Source: Desulfobulbaceae bacterium
GTDB taxonomy: Bacteria > Desulfobacterota > Desulfobulbia > Desulfobulbales > DAOVSZ01
Assembly (NCBI GenBank): GCA_030627725.1
Contig: DAOVSZ010000001.1
Location: forward strand, 1-36,207
Direction of reading: 5' to 3'
Length of the DNA: 36,207 nucleotides
The position numbers were made by a program, and so were the translations under genes. Positions 13,165-21,405 of this stretch are shown here, piece after piece (the first letter of the stretch is position 1; every line of letters starts with the position of its first letter). A model generated the notes under the pieces. The model did not search any database. It saw only the letters and a program-made list of their open reading frames with translations, and had not been told where the DNA came from.

Positions 13165-14295
13165 ATGAAAAAAAAACGTTTTTCCCCAGTTTTACTGAGC
13201 ATTATTCTCCTCCTTCTGACTGTCGGGTGCGGAAAACAAACTGACGAAAAGCTGCCTCTCCTGCGTGTCGGCCATGCACTGAACGACCATCACGCGCCGC
13301 TCTTTATTGCTGCCTTAAACCCTGATTATTTCAAAAAAAACGGCGGAATATATCTTCGAGAGGTCGAGTTCAGGAAAAAGTATGATCTCATCCATAACGA
13401 CCGTATCGTTGCCGAGGTCCGATTTGACTCGGGAAGGGGAGGCAGAAAGCTTGTCAGCAGACTCATTACCGGAGAGGCGGACATGGTCCTGGGCGGCATC
13501 CCGTCCGCTCTTCATTTTATTGATCAGGGAGGACCTCTGCGTATCCTGTCACCGGTGATGACGAACGGCACCTCGCTTATACTCAGAAACGATCTTGCGG
13601 CAGACACCTGGGACGAGTTCATCGCGTATGCGCGCACGACAAAGACCCCCCTTATCATCGGCTACAAGGCTGCCATCTCTACCCAGAACCTGATCTTTGA
13701 AACCGCACTCAAAAATGCAGGGATAGCGTACAGCAAGCAAATCGACAACCAGACTGTGCCGATCACCCTGGTCAATATGTTCGGCCCGCAGAACCTGGTC
13801 CCATCCATGAAAAACGAACTCATTGACGGCTTTGTCTGCAACCAGCCCTTTCCAGCCATGGCAGAAACGGACGGGATCGGCAAGACCATCGTCCAGCTCA
13901 GTGAACTCCCGCCCAAAGGACAGTGGCGCGGCATTCCCTGCTGCGGCCTCATTGCTACGGACTCCTTCACCAGGGCCCAGCAGGAAACATCCCGGCTTTT
14001 TGCAACCCTTCTTATGCGGGCGAACCTCTTTATTAACACAAACCAGCCGACAGCCATCTCACAGGTCTCAGGCTGGCTCAACCATCCGGCTGCAATAGAA
14101 GAACGCTCTCTTCCAACAATCAATTTTCTGATTGATTATGACGAGGCATGGACACGCGGGACCAACTTCTGGGTCAAATCAATGGTTGAACTCGGGAAAC
14201 TCAACAACAGGGTCAGCGCAGCCTATCAGGAGGGGACCTTGGAAAAACTTATCTACGACATGGACCTCTACAAACAGGCAAGGGACCAGATCTGA
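13165..14295 (+). CDS. periplasmic solute-binding lipoprotein, NMT1/SsuA-like (COG0715-type) fold, with no cognate permease or ATPase gene
   Basis: 376 aa. It has a signal peptide with lipobox LLLTVGC. The type-II binding-protein-like pattern includes LRVGH..HHAPLFIA and GEADMVLGGIPSAL. Its stop overlaps the kinase start (TGATG at 14293-14297). Confidence 0.85.
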   Translation: MKKKRFSPVLLSIILLLLTVGCGKQTDEKLPLLRVGHALNDHHAPLFIAALNPDYFKKNGGIYLREVEFRKKYDLIHNDRIVAEVRFDSGRGGRKLVSRLITGEADMVLGGIPSALHFIDQGGPLRILSPVMTNGTSLILRNDLAADTWDEFIAYARTTKTPLIIGYKAAISTQNLIFETALKNAGIAYSKQIDNQTVPITLVNMFGPQNLVPSMKNELIDGFVCNQPFPAMAETDGIGKTIVQLSELPPKGQWRGIPCCGLIATDSFTRAQQETSRLFATLLMRANLFINTNQPTAISQVSGWLNHPAAIEERSLPTINFLIDYDEAWTRGTNFWVKSMVELGKLNNRVSAAYQEGTLEKLIYDMDLYKQARDQI

Positions 14296-17200
14296 TGATA
14301 CTTTTAAAAGACAGCAGCATTAAAACCAAGATGCTGGTCGGGACCTCTGTCCTGACATTTTTCTTTCTCCTTGCCCTGGGTGTTTATCACATCACCGTGC
14401 AGATTGTAAATAAGGGTTTTCTCCATGTCATTCATCACGAGCAACAGATAATCAGGAAGGCAACGGAAATAAACACACATATCATTCTAAGCCGTCAGGC
14501 TGAAACGAATTTTATCCTGGACAACGACAGCAGACACCTTGCCCTGGTTGAAAAGCATATAGGAAACATCCTTCAAATCAACCAGACTCTCCAGCAAACC
14601 GCTACAGAAACACATGCACGGCAGGTCCTGGCCATAGCAGAAAGGATTCCGGCCCGCGCCAGGGAGTACTTCTCGACCTTCACAAAGGTTGTTGAGGCGC
14701 ACAAAGTCGTTGGTCATGACAACCGATCCGGGCTGAAAGGCGCTCTGGATGAAACAGCCCTTGTTCTGCTCGAAATAATCAGGACCTACGCACTGGAGGA
14801 CGCAATCGGCTCCATTCATATTCCTTCTTCACTTGCCCTTGCCCTTGAAATCAGAAGAAACGAAAAAGATTACCTCCTTTACCGCAAAAAAGAAGATGTC
14901 CGGAAGACCTATGAGACAATTGACACACTACTCGCCTCTCTTCTTACCGCAAAGCTGCCCCGTGAGCTTGTCGCTCCGATCAGGGCCCAGATCGATCTCT
15001 ACCGGCAGGCCTTTGACGAGCTTGTTGCCAAGGAAAAACAAATTGCTCTTCTCTCGTTTCAGTTAAAAGATGCGGCAGCAGAGATCGAAAACGACGCCAG
15101 CTATATCGTTGCCGCTGCCATCAAACTCGAGGACCAACAGATTCTGGCAACCCAGGAGCGTGCAAAGAAGATGACTCAGGCCGCACTTGCCTTCTGCGCC
15201 ATTGCTCTTTTTGCCGGACTTGTCCTGTTCCGCGGCATCACCAATGCCATAACCGGCCCTCTTCATGCCGTAATCGATAAGATAAAAGGGATCTCGGAAG
15301 GTGACTACGAAACCAGAGCGCCGGTTGATTCAAAAGACGAAATCGGCCAGCTGGCCGAGGCGTTCAACCAGATGGCCAAATCGCTGCTTGACGTAACAAA
15401 TATCTGTGAAGCCGTCTCCAGAGGCGAGTTCGAGCATTCCTTTCACATACGAGGGGAAAAAGACAGGCTTGGAAGCGCGGTCAACCGCATGGCGGAGAAT
15501 CTCACGACCGTCATCCGGCAGGCTGATTCGGTTGCCAAGGGTGATTATGAGGTGCAGATTACTCCATACTCGGACAAGGACGAACTCGGCGCCGCCTTAA
15601 AGGACATGATACTGCGGCTCAAAACCATGCATACGGCAAACCTGAATGCCCTGACGGAAGCACAACTTCTCGCCGACAACCTCGACAGCCTGCCCGTGCC
15701 GACCCATACGGTTGACCTCAACTTCCGAATTACCTATATCAATGCCGCCGGCGCGGCCATGGCCGGCCTGCCCCGTTCCGAATGCGAAGGCCGTTATTGC
15801 TACGAACTCTTCGGCAATGAACATTGCCGCACCGACAACTGTGCCGTTGCCCGGGCCAAGCTGGAAAACAGAGCGATCGTCTCGGAGACCGTGATCGAAA
15901 AGGGCGACACAAAAATCCCCATCCGCTATTTCGGCTCTCCCATGGTTGACGATTCCGGAAAAATCATCGGCGCCCAGGAGTGCATGCTCGACATTACGGA
16001 GATACGCCAGGCGCTCGATCAGACACTCTTTGAAAATCGCCTGCAGGAAGGCCATGCCGCGATCAACGAACGGTTGCGGGGCGAGCAGGACATAGAAGAA
16101 CTTGGCCACAGCATCCTCTCCGCCCTGTCCGAACAGCTCGATATTCAGACCGGCGCCGTGTACCTTGCTGACGAAGATCAACTGCTGCGACTGACCGCTT
16201 CCTATGCGACCGCAAAAGACCAGCCCCATAGAAAATCTTTTTCAATCGGGGAAGGCGTCTCCGGTCAGGCTGCACAGGAAGGAAAAAGGATCATGATCAA
16301 CGATATCCCGGACGATTGCATCCGTCTTGTCACCAGTACTGCCGAGGCTGTGCCGAAGAACATCGCTGCTCTGCCTCTCCGTTATGAAAACTCCCTCAAA
16401 GGGGTGTTGGAACTCGGGTCCTTTACGACATTTACCGAAAAGGACACGGCGCTCCTCGACCGGATAACCGATGACATCACAATTGCGATCCATACGGCCC
16501 AGTCCAGGTCCAGGATAAATCAACTTCTCGAAAAATCACAGGTCCAGTCTGAAGAACTCCAGACGCAGCAGGAGGAACTGAAAGCGACAAACGAAGAACT
16601 TGAAGAACAGACCCAGAACCTGCGTGAGAGCGAATCCCTTTTAAAAAACCAGCAGGAGCAGCTGCAGGCAATAAACGAGGAACTGGAAGACAAAACCGAC
16701 CGTCTTGAACACCAGAAGAGTGAGATCGAGCGAAAAAACGAAAACCTTCAAAAGGCACGAGGCGCACTTGAAAAGAAAGCGGAACAGGTTGCTCTGGCCA
16801 GCAGATACAAATCCGAGTTTCTGGCAAATATGTCGCATGAGCTCCGCACACCCTTGAACAGCCTGCTCCTGCTTGCCCGTAATCTCTCCCGTAACAGGGA
16901 CAACAACCTGACCGAGCAACAGGTGGAATCTGCACATATCATCTATAACAGCGGCAATGATCTCCTTCAGCTCATTAATGAAGTCCTCGACCTTTCCAAA
17001 ATCGAGGCCGGGCGGATGGACGTTGCCAGAAACAAAATTTCCCTGGCAGACCTGTCCCACTGGCTCAAGAGAAACTTCAAACACCTGCTTGACGAGAAGA
17101 GTCTTGATTTTTCCATCACAATTACGCATGAGGCTCCGCCTTCCATAATTTCCGACCGCTATCGGCTGGAACAGATCATCAGAAACCTGATGGCAAACGC

Positions 17201-18854
17201 CTTGAAGTTTACGCAAGAGGGAGGAGTTTTTGTTCGGATCGCGCCTGCTGACAAGAATGCAGATCTTACTGCTGTTGGGCTTACCCCGGAAAAAACACTG
17301 ACCATAAGTATCCGGGACACCGGCATCGGCATATCGCAAGAAAAGCATAAGGAAATATTTCAAGCATTCAGACAGGAAGACGGAAGCACCTCCAGAAAGT
17401 ACGGCGGCACCGGTCTTGGACTTTCCATCTCCAAAGAGCTTGCCGCCCTTCTTGGCGGTGAACTGCAGCTGACCAGTGCTCCTGAATCCGGCTCCACCTT
17501 CAGCATCTATCTGCCGTATACAATGCCTGAAAAGGTTGAAACCGAGGACACGGACACAGCCGAAACAGAGGATGACAGCGACAGAATTGACAGTGGAGAA
17601 TTTACCGTTCAGGATGATCTGCAGCCACCAATTTCCCTTGCCCCCCCTCTTCCGGATGACAGAGACAACCTGCTGGAAAATGACAAGGTCCTGCTGATTG
17701 TTGAGGATGATTTGAACTTTGCCAAAGTCCTCTTCCGTCAAGGCCATGAAACCGGGTTTAAATGTCTTGTTTCAGCAGACGGCAGGGATGGTCTCACCCT
17801 GGCAAGAAAATGTATTCCGAATGCGATCATCCTTGACATTAAACTTCCATCCATGGACGGATGGAAGGTGCTGGAATCGCTCAAGACCGACCAGCATACG
17901 AGGCATATCCCGGTCCACATGATGTCGGTTGAGGAACGGACCGTTGATGCCTATAAAAAAGGCGCGGTCGGCTTTTTGACCAAACCGGTCAAACAGGAGC
18001 AGCTCCAGGAAGCCTTTAACCGTTTTGACCATATTATCTCACGGGACTTAAGCGAACTTCTGCTGGTAGAGGACGATGAAATCCTATCGGCTGAAATTGC
18101 CAAACTGATCGGCAACAGTGATGTCCATATTACAACGGCAACATCTGGGAAAGAGGTGCTTGCGGCATTTAAGGAGAAAAAATTCGACTGCATGATCCTC
18201 GACCTGGGGCTCCCGGACATGACCGGCATAGAGTTGCTTGATATGCTTGAGAAAACAGCCGGCATCAAGATCCCGCCGGTTATAGTTTACACCGGCAGAG
18301 ACCTTACCAATGAGGAAGGTTTGATTTTAAACCGCTACACCGACTCGGTCATCATCAAGGGAGTCAAGTCGGAAGAGAGGCTCCTTGATGAAACCGCCCT
18401 TTTCCTCCACCGGATTGTTGACAACCTGCCGGACGAGAAGAAGATGATGATAGCAAACCTCTATGAACAGGACGAGATGTTCAAGGACAAAAAAATCCTT
18501 CTCGTTGACGATGACATGCGAAATTCTTTTGCCCTTTCAAAGATCATGGAAGAACGCGGCATGCACGTCATGATCGCAAATAACGGCCGGCACGCGCTTG
18601 ACATAATCGCACAGGAATCTGATTTTGATCTTGTACTCATGGATATCATGATGCCGATCATGGATGGATACGAAGCAATACGAAACCTGCGAAAAGACAC
18701 CCGGTTCAGGAATCTGCCGATCATAGCGCTCACCGCCAAGGCAATGCCCGAAGACAGAGAAAAATGCATGCATGCAGGCGCCAACGACTACCTTGCCAAA
18801 CCGGTGGAAGAGGGCAGACTCTTTTCCATGATGCGGGTGTGGCTGTATCGGTAA
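14295..18854 (+). CDS. hybrid sensor histidine kinase
   Basis: 1519 aa, with this domain order:
- TM helix, about 270-aa helical periplasmic domain, second TM helix
- two or three HAMP repeats (DEIGQLAEAFNQMA; DRLGSAVNRMAENL; DELGAALKDMILRL)
- a PAS domain containing a Cys4 motif, then a GAF domain (AVYLADEDQLLRL...GEGVSGQAAQEGKRIMI)
- a coiled coil
- an H-box (FLANMSHELRTPLNS) and G-boxes (DTGIGI, GGTGLGLSI)
- three REC domains, each with the DD pair and the phospho-acceptor Asp (ILDIKLPSMDG, ILDLGLPDMTG, LMDIMMPIMDG). Confidence 0.95.
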   Translation: MILLKDSSIKTKMLVGTSVLTFFFLLALGVYHITVQIVNKGFLHVIHHEQQIIRKATEINTHIILSRQAETNFILDNDSRHLALVEKHIGNILQINQTLQQTATETHARQVLAIAERIPARAREYFSTFTKVVEAHKVVGHDNRSGLKGALDETALVLLEIIRTYALEDAIGSIHIPSSLALALEIRRNEKDYLLYRKKEDVRKTYETIDTLLASLLTAKLPRELVAPIRAQIDLYRQAFDELVAKEKQIALLSFQLKDAAAEIENDASYIVAAAIKLEDQQILATQERAKKMTQAALAFCAIALFAGLVLFRGITNAITGPLHAVIDKIKGISEGDYETRAPVDSKDEIGQLAEAFNQMAKSLLDVTNICEAVSRGEFEHSFHIRGEKDRLGSAVNRMAENLTTVIRQADSVAKGDYEVQITPYSDKDELGAALKDMILRLKTMHTANLNALTEAQLLADNLDSLPVPTHTVDLNFRITYINAAGAAMAGLPRSECEGRYCYELFGNEHCRTDNCAVARAKLENRAIVSETVIEKGDTKIPIRYFGSPMVDDSGKIIGAQECMLDITEIRQALDQTLFENRLQEGHAAINERLRGEQDIEELGHSILSALSEQLDIQTGAVYLADEDQLLRLTASYATAKDQPHRKSFSIGEGVSGQAAQEGKRIMINDIPDDCIRLVTSTAEAVPKNIAALPLRYENSLKGVLELGSFTTFTEKDTALLDRITDDITIAIHTAQSRSRINQLLEKSQVQSEELQTQQEELKATNEELEEQTQNLRESESLLKNQQEQLQAINEELEDKTDRLEHQKSEIERKNENLQKARGALEKKAEQVALASRYKSEFLANMSHELRTPLNSLLLLARNLSRNRDNNLTEQQVESAHIIYNSGNDLLQLINEVLDLSKIEAGRMDVARNKISLADLSHWLKRNFKHLLDEKSLDFSITITHEAPPSIISDRYRLEQIIRNLMANALKFTQEGGVFVRIAPADKNADLTAVGLTPEKTLTISIRDTGIGISQEKHKEIFQAFRQEDGSTSRKYGGTGLGLSISKELAALLGGELQLTSAPESGSTFSIYLPYTMPEKVETEDTDTAETEDDSDRIDSGEFTVQDDLQPPISLAPPLPDDRDNLLENDKVLLIVEDDLNFAKVLFRQGHETGFKCLVSADGRDGLTLARKCIPNAIILDIKLPSMDGWKVLESLKTDQHTRHIPVHMMSVEERTVDAYKKGAVGFLTKPVKQEQLQEAFNRFDHIISRDLSELLLVEDDEILSAEIAKLIGNSDVHITTATSGKEVLAAFKEKKFDCMILDLGLPDMTGIELLDMLEKTAGIKIPPVIVYTGRDLTNEEGLILNRYTDSVIIKGVKSEERLLDETALFLHRIVDNLPDEKKMMIANLYEQDEMFKDKKILLVDDDMRNSFALSKIMEERGMHVMIANNGRHALDIIAQESDFDLVLMDIMMPIMDGYEAIRNLRKDTRFRNLPIIALTAKAMPEDREKCMHAGANDYLAKPVEEGRLFSMMRVWLYR

Positions 18855-18862
18855 ACCTTCTT

Positions 18863-19690
18863 ATGAACAAAAAAGAGATCGAAGATATTGAGATCCATCT
18901 CCTGCTGGAGGCGATCTCAAGACGATACGGATACGATTTCAGGAATTATGCCCAGGCCTCCATGAAACGGAGGATAAAACATGCCGTGGCTCATCTTGAG
19001 TGTGAGGGGATAACCGAACTCACAGGGAGACTCCTTTATGACGAGTCCTTTTTTCAGGATCTCGTGCAAAAATTCAGCATCCCGGTCACGGAGATGTTCC
19101 GGGACCCGGAGGTATATCGGGGCTTGCGGAAAGAGGTGGCCCCCTATCTTGCAACCTATCCCTTTCTCAAGGTCTGGCATGCCGGTTGCGCTACCGGCGA
19201 GGAGGCGTATTCCATCGCCATCCTTCTAAAGGAAGAAGGCCTGTACAACCGGACCACCATCTATGCCACGGATTTTAACGAAGCCGCCCTGAACACTGCC
19301 AAAAAGGGTATTTATCCGATTGACCGTTTCAAGGAGTATAACACCTCATATTTTGAATCAAGCGGAACCAGAAGCCTTTCGGAATACTACCAGGCCGAGT
19401 ACGACTCCGTGATCATGTCTCAGACGCTGAAAAATAACCTCACCTTTGCCAGACACAACCTGGTGACGGACGAGTCATTCGGTGAGATGCACCTCATACT
19501 GTGCCGTAATGTCCTTATCTATTTCAACCAGGAACTCCAAGACAGGGTCCTCAATCTCCTCAGCAAAAGCCTTATCAGGGGTGGCTTTCTCTGCCTCGGC
19601 GCCAAGGAGACTCTGCTGGGTTCTTCTGTTCAAGACCAGTTTGCCGGATTTAACAAGAAACTGAATATTTATAGAAAAAAAATCGAATGA
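18863..19690 (+). CDS. cheR: CheR-type protein-glutamate O-methyltransferase
   Basis: 275 aa counted from MNKKEIEDIE (ATG 18863, 8 nt after the kinase stop). Motifs VTEMFRDP, VWHAGCATGEEAYSIAILL and CRNVLIYF are present. The longer track ORF from 18764 would overlap the kinase. Confidence 0.9.
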   Translation: MNKKEIEDIEIHLLLEAISRRYGYDFRNYAQASMKRRIKHAVAHLECEGITELTGRLLYDESFFQDLVQKFSIPVTEMFRDPEVYRGLRKEVAPYLATYPFLKVWHAGCATGEEAYSIAILLKEEGLYNRTTIYATDFNEAALNTAKKGIYPIDRFKEYNTSYFESSGTRSLSEYYQAEYDSVIMSQTLKNNLTFARHNLVTDESFGEMHLILCRNVLIYFNQELQDRVLNLLSKSLIRGGFLCLGAKETLLGSSVQDQFAGFNKKLNIYRKKIE

Positions 19691-19789: not shown

Positions 19790-19834
19790 CATCTGTAGGA
19801 TTGACATTTATTGCATGATGGCAAGGAGAAAAAC

Positions 19835-21405
19835 ATGCCGAACACCAGGGCAAAAATACTCATAGTCGATGACCGCCTGGAAAACATCCGCGCCCTTGAG
19901 ATAACCCTCCAGCAACTGGACATCGATATCTACAGCGCCCTCTCCGGAAATGCGGCATTAACCCTGATGGTCACGCATGATTTCGCGGTGGTGCTCATGG
20001 ACGTCCAGATGCCCGGCATGGACGGCTTTGAAACCGCCTCATTGATGCAGCACAACAGGCAGACCAGAAATATTCCGATCATCTTCATTACAGCGATCAG
20101 CAAAGACGAACAGCATATCTTCAAAGGATACCAGTCAGGGGCTGTTGATTATCTCTTCAAACCGATCAACGCGGACATCCTCCTCTGCAAGGTAAATGTC
20201 TTTCTGAAACTCTATGAAACCAGGATTGAATGCGAAATGATGCAGGAGGAAGTAAACCGGTCGAAGAACCTTGAATCCTTAGGGATTCTTGCCGGCGGCA
20301 TTGCCCATGACTTCAACAACCTGCTCACCGCCATTTTCGGCAATATCGAACTTGCCAGAAAATTCAGTGTCCCGGGTGGCAAGGCGGAACTGCTGCTTCA
20401 GAATTCTTCAACCGCCATCGACCGGTCAAGGGAGTTGACCAAGCAGCTCTTGACCTTCTCAAAGGGAGGCACGCCTATTAAGCGTGCCACCTCCATCACC
20501 GCACTGATAACCAATGCCTGTTCCGCCTTTCAGGCCAGATCTTCCTCCAACGTCACCATTAACATCCCGCAAGATATCCGGTCGACCAAAATAGACACGG
20601 AGCAGATTTCTCAAGTCTTTCACAGTATGCTCGTGAATGCGGATGAGGCCATGCCGGAGGGGGGGAAATATCAATAACAGCAGAAAATGTAACTATCAAT
20701 CCAAACAGCGCGCTCCCTCTCAAACAGGGAAAATATCTCAAAATCACCATGTCGGACACCGGCCCCGGAATCCCGGAAGAGATTGTCGGCAAGATCTTCG
20801 ACCCGTATTTCTCAACCAAGCAACAGTGTTCCCAGAAAGGCCTGGGACTCGGCCTGGCAATCTGTCACTCGATTATAACAAGGCATGGAGGCTGTCTGCA
20901 GGCGGAATCGGAAAAAGGACGCGGGGCAGTGTTTTATATCTATCTCCCGGCGATAGAGATAGAACCCCTGGCGGGTTCTGAACAGGCGGCGCTAGACTCC
21001 ACACCATACGCACCATCGAAAAGAGGACCAAAACGCATACTTCTGATGGACGATGAGGAGTTCATTATCCAGGTCACCGGTGATATCCTGGAATCCCTTG
21101 GATACGACTACGAGTCCGCCCGCAATGGAGAAGAGGCGCTCAAGCTCTTTATTGAGGCCAAAAAAGAACGGAGACCCTTTGATGCCGTTATCCTTGACTT
21201 GAGTATCCGGAAGGGAATGGGCGGGACTGAAACGATTAAACGAATGCTGAAAATCGACAAATATGTCAGGGCAATCGTTGCGAGCGGATACAGCGAAGAC
21301 GATGTCATGAAAAATTTCCGCGATTACGGTTTTCTGGCAGCCATTGCCAAGCCATTTGACATCAACGGGCTGGAGGATGCGATTAAGCAAATTTTGGACA
21401 AATAA
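19835..21405 (+). pseudogene. REC-HisKA-HATPase-REC hybrid kinase interrupted by a frameshift in a G7 run
   Basis: Frame A (19835-20677) encodes REC (ILIVDD...VLMDVQMPGMDG) and the H-box (GIAHDFNNLLTAI), and ends ...NADEAMPEGGKYQ*. A second frame continues without stops from about 20656 as EISITAENVTI...MSDTGPGIPEE...GLGLGLAI (HATPase) plus a C-terminal REC (ILLMDDE...ILDLSIRKGMGG), ending at 21405. Adding one G to the G7 run at 20659-20665 restores a single ORF of about 523 aa. Confidence 0.85.

Follow-up and report, generated by a model that had tools for sequence, protein, structure and literature searches.

A hybrid histidine kinase as the probable methyl acceptor of an adjoining CheR-type methyltransferase in a Desulfobulbaceae bacterium

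Introduction

The idea that a histidine kinase can itself be the methyl acceptor of a chemotaxis-type methyltransferase is already known, with the RsbK/RsbM pair of the sigma-B stress module (Chen et al. 2012 and 2015; de Been et al. 2010 and 2011), the MAC2 class and the cfcABCDE cluster as precedents. In Bacillus cereus, RsbK has the domain order CHASE3-HAMP-GAF-S-helix-HK-CA-REC, and the methyltransferase RsbM is encoded in the same operon (PMC4574943). Purified RsbM methylates RsbK in vitro with 14C-labelled S-adenosylmethionine (SAM), and it does so on the signalling helix (S-helix). Methylation represses kinase output, is needed to hold sigma-B off and strengthens the binding of the inhibitory C-terminal REC domain. 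RsbM comes without a cognate esterase; the authors call it an orphan methyltransferase, regard demethylation as unlikely to control the system and counted 127 RsbK-like kinases in 10 phyla (PMC4574943). Chen et al. noted that output is variable among RsbK-like kinases, and the genomic association of RsbK with CheR has been restated in a 2026 paper. Here, we analyse a stretch of 36,207 nucleotides from a Desulfobulbaceae bacterium (contig DAOVSZ010000001.1, positions 1 to 36,207; hereafter the window), which carries a gene for a large hybrid histidine kinase followed at a distance of 8 nt by a cheR gene. Judging from sequence and from analogy, the locus is probably an RsbK/RsbM-type (MAC2-type) module, in which the signalling helix of the kinase itself would be the substrate of the adjoining CheR.

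Two further groups of systems are relevant here. As far as the descriptions of the class in citing papers go, MAC2 proteins (Wuichet and Zhulin 2010; MiST3) are kinases with a receptor-like methylatable coiled coil that are accompanied by separate CheR-related and often CheB-related genes, without CheA, CheW or a methyl-accepting chemotaxis protein (MCP). According to a 2022 preprint, MAC proteins have not been characterised experimentally. In the cfcABCDE cluster of Pseudomonas putida, CfcA (PP_3761) is a hybrid kinase with CHASE3 and GAF domains, CfcB and CfcC are CheR3 and CheB3, CfcD contains a REC domain and the output is the diguanylate cyclase CfcR; CheR3 and CheB3 reportedly do not take part in chemotaxis (PMC4951495).

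Results

Glu pairs in the signalling helix of the kinase

The features on which the argument rests are the following.

14295..18854, + strand: hybrid sensor histidine kinase of the RsbK/MAC2 type, 1519 amino acids (translation, Pfam, homology to the RsbK orthologue)
16515..16802, + strand: predicted signalling helix (S-helix), residues about 741-836 (family consensus, 167 distinct helices; assigned register)
16551..16598, + strand: unit 1, candidate methyl-accepting pairs E753-E754, E760-E761 and E767-E768 (aligned with the EEL heptads of the RsbK orthologue)
16656..16682, + strand: unit 2, E788-Q789 and E795-E796 (position relative to H848, family consensus)
16836..16838, + strand: codon of the phospho-accepting His848 (H-box SHELRTPLN; HisKA Pfam match 839-906)
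18863..19690, + strand: CheR-type SAM-dependent protein-glutamate methyltransferase of the kinase-linked (RsbM/CfcB) subtype (Pfam CheR_N and CheR, identities)

The kinase consists of two transmembrane segments, HAMP (residues 315-365), PAS (463-571), GAF (597-733), the signalling helix, HisKA (839-906), HATPase (954-1076) and three REC domains. The Pfam scan of the kinase yielded neither an MCPsignal (PF00015) match nor a hairpin domain for coupling to CheA/CheW, and found no CheR or CheB domain in the polypeptide, CheR being a separate open reading frame (ORF). Identification of the kinase as an MCP or as a fusion of the MAC1 type was dismissed on these grounds. As a separate observation, the PAS domain holds a four-cysteine motif, C497-x4-C502-x8-C511-x4-C516 (SECEGRYCYELFGNEHCRTDNCAV, residues 497-516, about 15783..15842), a possible binding site for a metal or Fe-S cluster.

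Positions 16548-16691, read in frame 1, translate to SEELQTQQEELKATNEELEEQTQNLRESESLLKNQQEQLQAINEELED, i.e., kinase residues 752-799, and this segment falls in the helix that separates GAF from HisKA. EEL triplets begin at residues 753, 760 and 767, with a spacing of exactly seven, and again at residue 795, 28 residues further on, just as the first-pass annotation of this DNA had described them (EEL units seven residues apart, followed by a later one). Relative to the phospho-accepting H848, the three pairs of unit 1 occupy positions -95/-94, -88/-87 and -81/-80, while those of unit 2 reside at -60/-59 (E788-Q789) and -53/-52 (E795-E796). The second residue of the -60/-59 pair, Q789 (codon 16659..16661), is encoded as Gln where the family consensus is EE; one homologous locus (L035) has E-Q at the same position. 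Gln residues in such pairs of chemoreceptors mimic methylated Glu until they are deamidated by CheB or CheD. Neither CheB nor CheD is encoded in the operon in the window.

When the helix was shuffled 200,000 times with its composition kept, an in-phase run of at least three EEL triplets arose only twice, and since the pattern is also conserved in homologues from many phyla, it is more than a product of chance. The sequence TQQEELKAT had been put forward as matching a chemoreceptor methylation pattern at all positions but one; direct reading confirms this, with K standing where [ASTG] is expected. The consensus for methylation of MCPs is [ASTG][ASTG]xx[EQ][EQ]xx[ASTG][ASTG] (Alexander and Zhulin 2007; Perez et al. 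2006). E760-E761-L-K-A-T agrees with the C-terminal half of that consensus, the small-residue flanks not being kept in the family consensus.

Relationship to RsbK and RsbM

For direct comparison, an RsbK orthologue was located by querying 401 Bacillales genomes with the helix plus the kinase part, eight of which gave a frame of 899 amino acids. Two fetched regions encode a protein of 896 amino acids in which His falls on 505 and Asp on 827, as in the published RsbK numbering. The protein comprises CHASE3, HAMP, GAF, HisKA, HATPase and REC, is followed by CheR and lies in a sigB cluster (L191) with genes for STAS, anti-sigma kinase, sigma-70 and REC-PP2C proteins (RsbV-RsbW-SigB and RsbY). In BLASTP, the window kinase and this orthologue share 35% identity over 661 amino acids (E = 4e-119), from GAF to the last REC domain, and the last REC domain itself is 48% identical. 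The helix of the orthologue reads TEELQVQSEELQTQAEELQMQAEELRTTNEQLE, and EEL of the window kinase aligns on its EEL; the repetition of the heptads leaves the register uncertain by one heptad. The methylated residues of RsbK, reportedly E439 and E446 (Chen et al. 2012), would each be the second Glu of an EEL triplet in the fetched orthologue, the two triplets being successive. Between the CheR of the window and the RsbM orthologue, identity is 44% in a gap-free alignment of 272 residues.

Conservation of the helix and co-variation with CheR

Used by itself as a query, the helix (residues 738-836) matched 1345 proteins. All 120 of those listed share the core (HAMP)-GAF-helix-HisKA-HATPase(-REC) and are described as hybrids, and Bacillota, Cyanobacteria, Desulfobacterota, Bacteroidota, Cloacimonadota and others are named among the matches listed. 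From the loci that were fetched, 167 distinct helices align without gaps as far as the phospho-accepting His. Their consensus is eELQ.QqeEL...NeeLe.Q...L..see.L..QqEELqq.NeELeeka, followed by some 50 residues until SKYKSEFLANMSH. Leu recurs every seven residues, Asn or Gln stands four residues past each Leu, and the most conserved pair in the family is EE at -60/-59. This pattern suggests a coiled-coil segment of roughly 14 heptads in which L occupies d, N/Q occupies a and the EE pairs fall on the exposed positions b and c of a dimeric coil. The helix motif, its distance from the phospho-accepting His and the adjoining dedicated CheR paralogue are conserved jointly across many phyla.

In a first set of 80 loci, fetched with a piece of the kinase, CheR and CheB were scored by tblastn with the genome's own CheR and CheB proteins, and a locus was taken as assessable when 2 kb or more of sequence flanked its motif kinase on each side. 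CheR was present within 1.5 kb of the motif kinase in 51 of 59 assessable loci, and 27 of these 51 also had a receiver-less CheB. As this set had partly been chosen via an EEL peptide, independent samples were sought. A search by CheR alone yielded nine loci; all eight of those found via CheR only (L101-L108, mostly Desulfobulbaceae, up to 64% identical) had a motif kinase directly upstream. For a second set of 80 loci (L111-L190), catalytic-domain peptides were the main bait. These loci vary in helix length and content and include 58 assessable family kinases; here, a CheR was counted as kinase-type at 220 bits or more. A kinase-type CheR was adjacent in 30 of 44 cases with at least two canonical EE pairs, compared with 1 of 14 with none or one. 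The corresponding Fisher p of 9e-5 overstates the independence of the data, because shared ancestry is uncorrected. With the same reservation about kinship, the check suggested in the first-pass annotation, whether EEL heptads co-vary with the presence of CheR, speaks for its inference.

Kinases without a CheR next door were followed into their genomes. Five genomes with a motif kinase lacking an adjoining CheR each have exactly one kinase-type CheR elsewhere (52-56% identity, more than 300 bits). Among a further five genomes, G006 and G007 (loci L116 and L121) likewise have a kinase-type CheR elsewhere, and none was found in the genomes of loci L158 and L187, the helices of which are short. 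The same type of heptad also occurs fused to the enzymes, as seen in locus L125, where a protein of 1424 amino acids joins CheB and CheR to PAS and kinase domains and carries ANEEILSSNEELQSTNEELETAKEEIQATNEELNTINDELQ directly after the CheR domain.

Two Nostoc loci, L125 (10101-14372, - strand) and L126 (10433-14686, - strand), encode such CheB-CheR-fused kinases of the MAC1 type with NEEL heptads. In both, a large HAMP-GAF kinase sits a few kb away; it has partial EE pairs only and no CheR of its own.

The adjoining CheR and the rest of the genome

The ATG of cheR is located at 18863, 8 nt past the stop of the kinase gene. CheR_N and CheR matched with 138 and 37 bits, respectively, each above the cut-off. 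In an alignment with Bacillus subtilis CheR (5FTW), the SAM-binding motifs GCATGEE, ATD and CRNVLIYF are retained and so is the basic MKRR helix of the N-domain; from its sequence, the enzyme looks intact.

The source genome is a metagenome-assembled genome (MAG) of 2.58 Mb with a completeness of 78%. Outside the window it encodes at least six MCPs, eight to nine CheRs, six CheBs and several CheA/CheW loci. The description of the CheR in the window as an orphan without an MCP is therefore true of the locus only: no match for MCPsignal, CheB or CheW was obtained on its contig (C46), and the statement does not extend to the genome. Pairwise identities among the CheRs are cleanly bimodal. The CheR of the window is 54% identical to paralogues on contigs C106 and C245 and only 26-35% identical, in partial alignments, to the five chemotaxis-type CheRs of the genome. 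Since it belongs to a different paralogue group, we dismissed the possibility that it serves the MCPs of the genome. The first-pass annotation had reckoned with an MCP/CheB locus elsewhere that might account for this CheR, and it turns out that the MCPs have their own, different CheR paralogues.

Three motif kinases (C46, C106 and C124), three kinase-type CheRs (C46, C106 and C245) and one receiver-less CheB (C106) were counted in the genome. C106 carries a full paralogous cassette: a kinase with two EEL units, a CheR, a receiver-less CheB of 197 amino acids and an ORF of 379 amino acids that, read from its sequence, looks like a diguanylate cyclase. The third motif kinase on C124 has no CheR alongside, and the kinase-type CheR on C245 has no kinase alongside. 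That each is unpaired on its contig suggests action in trans.

Other genes of the locus

Two further genes of the locus need to be considered.

13165..14295, + strand: NMT1-like periplasmic solute-binding lipoprotein (Pfam NMT1_2, E = 8.8e-24; lipoprotein-type N-terminus)
19811..21405, + strand: REC-HisKA-HATPase-REC kinase, the CfcD-like second kinase of the cassette (Pfam, three-frame reading, orthologue alignment)

The stop of the lipoprotein gene overlaps the start of the kinase gene, i.e., the two are translationally coupled, and the lipoprotein may be a co-sensor of the kinase. No homologue of it was found beside related kinases in about 170 loci, and it thus looks lineage-specific. Downstream of CheR, Pfam identified the REC-kinase, a nitroreductase and an acyl-AMP ligase; a route from RsbY (REC-PP2C) to RsbV/RsbW/SigB was not found among these downstream genes, and the window has no GGDEF gene.

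A frameshift in seven consecutive G (20659-20665), in the N-box region of HATPase, splits the reading of the second kinase into two ORFs, 19811..20677 and about 20680..21405. Orthologues of this kinase in L102, L104 and L105 are intact, 522-526 amino acids long and 57-61% identical. The frameshift could be an assembly error of the MAG, the mark of a pseudogene or a slippage-prone tract. In the closest relatives, L101-L104, the gene order is kinase, CheR, REC-kinase and receiver-less CheB. L105 and the window have the cassette without CheB, and because both lack what L101-L104 keep, loss of the esterase seems recurrent within one lineage.

Discussion

Is the kinase the substrate of CheR?

Glu-pair repeats in the signalling helix and a dedicated cheR gene next to it make the kinase the probable target of the enzyme. 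The suggestion that it is the methyl acceptor of the adjoining CheR, as made in the first-pass annotation, agrees with all comparative tests made here and is well supported by homology to RsbK/RsbM, by the in vitro methylation of RsbK by RsbM and by co-variation. In mechanistic terms, some of the pairs E753/754, E760/761, E767/768 and E795/796 would be methylated by CheR at their second Glu. Neutralisation of these charges could alter packing of the coiled coil, the change in packing could shift the on/off equilibrium of H848 autophosphorylation, and the shifted state of H848 would in turn alter the phosphorelay via the three REC domains and the downstream REC-kinase.

Several observations weigh against this assignment. 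The support for methylation of the window kinase is comparative throughout. The family does not keep the small residues ([ASTG]) that flank the pair in the MCP consensus, and the A-T that follows E760-E761 is particular to the window kinase. EE at -60/-59 is present in 17 of 26 homologues without an adjacent CheR, and genome G008 (locus L139) is a real exception in that it holds an EEL-bearing kinase and no kinase-type CheR was found in it. Since EE pairs persist without CheR in these cases, the motif is partly retained for structure. The question raised at the outset, whether EEL heptads are equally common where CheR is missing, is answered for the most part in favour of the kinase as substrate: the number of pairs tracks CheR adjacency in the second set, and the most conserved pair often stays behind without the enzyme. 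Furthermore, proximity alone cannot pick the substrate, because the second kinase is just as near to CheR.

Taken to its end, the structural argument says that the EEL heptads are an unmodified signalling helix leading from GAF to the DHp domain and that CheR methylates an MCP or another protein, being co-transcribed for regulation. S-helices are general in GAF- and HAMP-linked kinases, the CheR-less homologues and G008 fit such a role, and the genome's MCPs, at least six in number, are possible methyl acceptors in principle. We nevertheless hold this to be unlikely. A CheR of a distinct paralogue group, far from the five chemotaxis CheRs, travels with such kinases across many phyla, the number of EE pairs co-varies with its adjacency, and kinases fused to CheB and CheR bear the same heptads. 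Moreover, in B. cereus the orthologous proteins have been shown in vitro to be an enzyme and its substrate (PMC4574943), and CheR3 of P. putida, from the same kind of cluster, has no reported role in chemotaxis (PMC4951495). The second kinase (19811..21405) is very unlikely to be the substrate in place of the large hybrid kinase. It is equally conserved in the cassette and also present in the relatives L101-L105, and 34 kinases without the motif were counted at no more than 1.5 kb from a CheR; yet its linker from REC to HisKA is short and has no Glu-pair heptads, it is frameshifted in the window while CheR is intact, and neither the Ureibacillus locus L110 nor the B. cereus rsbK-rsbM operon, for which methylation of the large kinase has been demonstrated, contains it.

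Adaptation or set-point?

If the large kinase is the methyl acceptor, its methylation may serve different ends. It is more likely to set a gain or set-point, or to act as an inhibitory lock, than to bring about fast adaptation in the style of chemotaxis, because the operon lacks an esterase and Q789 already puts Gln at a consensus site; a set-point or lock is at least as likely as true adaptation. Adaptation wired directly into a two-component kinase had been proposed for this locus. The methyl-acceptor part of that proposal is supported. The adaptation part is weaker, because it implies reversible methylation and the operon has no CheB. A true adaptation loop, in which methylation by CheR is balanced by demethylation, for instance through the receiver-less CheB of C106 acting in trans, and output adapts to persistent stimuli, is a prospect that we view with doubt. 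It gains from the receiver-less CheB that accompanies most cassettes of the family (27/51 in the first set, as well as L101-L104) and from the one that this very genome encodes beside a paralogous kinase; it loses from the lack of CheB and CheD in the window operon and from the report that demethylation is unlikely to control the B. cereus system (PMC4574943). In addition, the cassette CheBs have no receiver domain and hence offer no obvious feedback from kinase to esterase.

An extension of this thought, for which we see only a small chance, is that the three methylatable kinases, the three kinase-type CheRs and the single CheB of C106 form a cross-wired network, in which the window kinase, without a CheB, with one site hard-coded as Gln and with a private binding protein, would be demethylated in trans. 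If true, this would constitute genuine sensory adaptation inside a two-component phosphorelay.

Comparison with described systems

Covalent tuning of two-component kinases by chemotaxis-type enzymes is widespread, with dozens of phyla and more than 1000 homologues in one search, while the biochemistry of tuning by CheR-type enzymes rests on essentially one protein, RsbK. The locus described here is a clear, well-delimited example from an anaerobic lineage of the sulfur cycle with candidate residues named, and the cross-phylum numbers provide quantitative support for a link between the number of Glu pairs and the presence of a dedicated CheR. It sharpens an existing question, namely how methylation affects kinase output and whether it is reversible in versions without CheB.

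Among the known systems, RsbK/RsbM shares with the locus the core order of HAMP, GAF, S-helix with EEL heptads, HisKA, HATPase and REC, as well as a methyltransferase gene directly downstream of the kinase without a paired esterase. Unlike RsbK, the window kinase has no CHASE3 match, an unassigned extracytoplasmic region, an additional Cys-rich PAS domain and three REC domains where RsbK has one. Its S-helix is four heptads longer and contains a second QQE(E/Q)L...NEELE unit that is missing in RsbK, and an NMT1-like binding protein is coupled upstream. Whereas the rsbK-rsbM operon lies with genes for RsbY, RsbV, RsbW and SigB, these are not found near the window kinase, and the cassette goes on with a REC-kinase.

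Compared with MAC2, as that class is described in citing papers, the window has the coiled coil in the kinase, the separate cheR gene and a cluster without MCP, CheA or CheW; it differs from those members that have CheB, as its cluster contains CheR and no CheB. With the cfc cluster, again by its description, it has in common a hybrid GAF kinase, CheR, (CheB) and a second kinase containing REC. The window differs in lacking both CheB and a GGDEF gene, while the paralogous cluster on C106 ends in a diguanylate-cyclase-like ORF. The window kinase resembles MCPs such as Tar and Tsr in having Glu-Glu/Glu-Gln pairs at a spacing of seven residues, predicted to face outwards from a dimeric coiled coil. 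The stretch E760-E761-L-K-A-T conforms to E-E-x-x-A-[ST], and Gln is encoded at one of the consensus sites, as it is in MCPs. In contrast to MCPs, the window kinase has no MCPsignal domain, no hairpin and no coupling to CheA/CheW, and its helix runs straight into DHp. MAC1 proteins (KEGG K13924 type) likewise have N-E-E-[LI] heptads beside a CheR domain, as seen in L125, but in MAC1 proteins the enzyme domains and the kinase form one polypeptide, with the coil ahead of PAS domains, whereas the CheR of the window is a separate protein.

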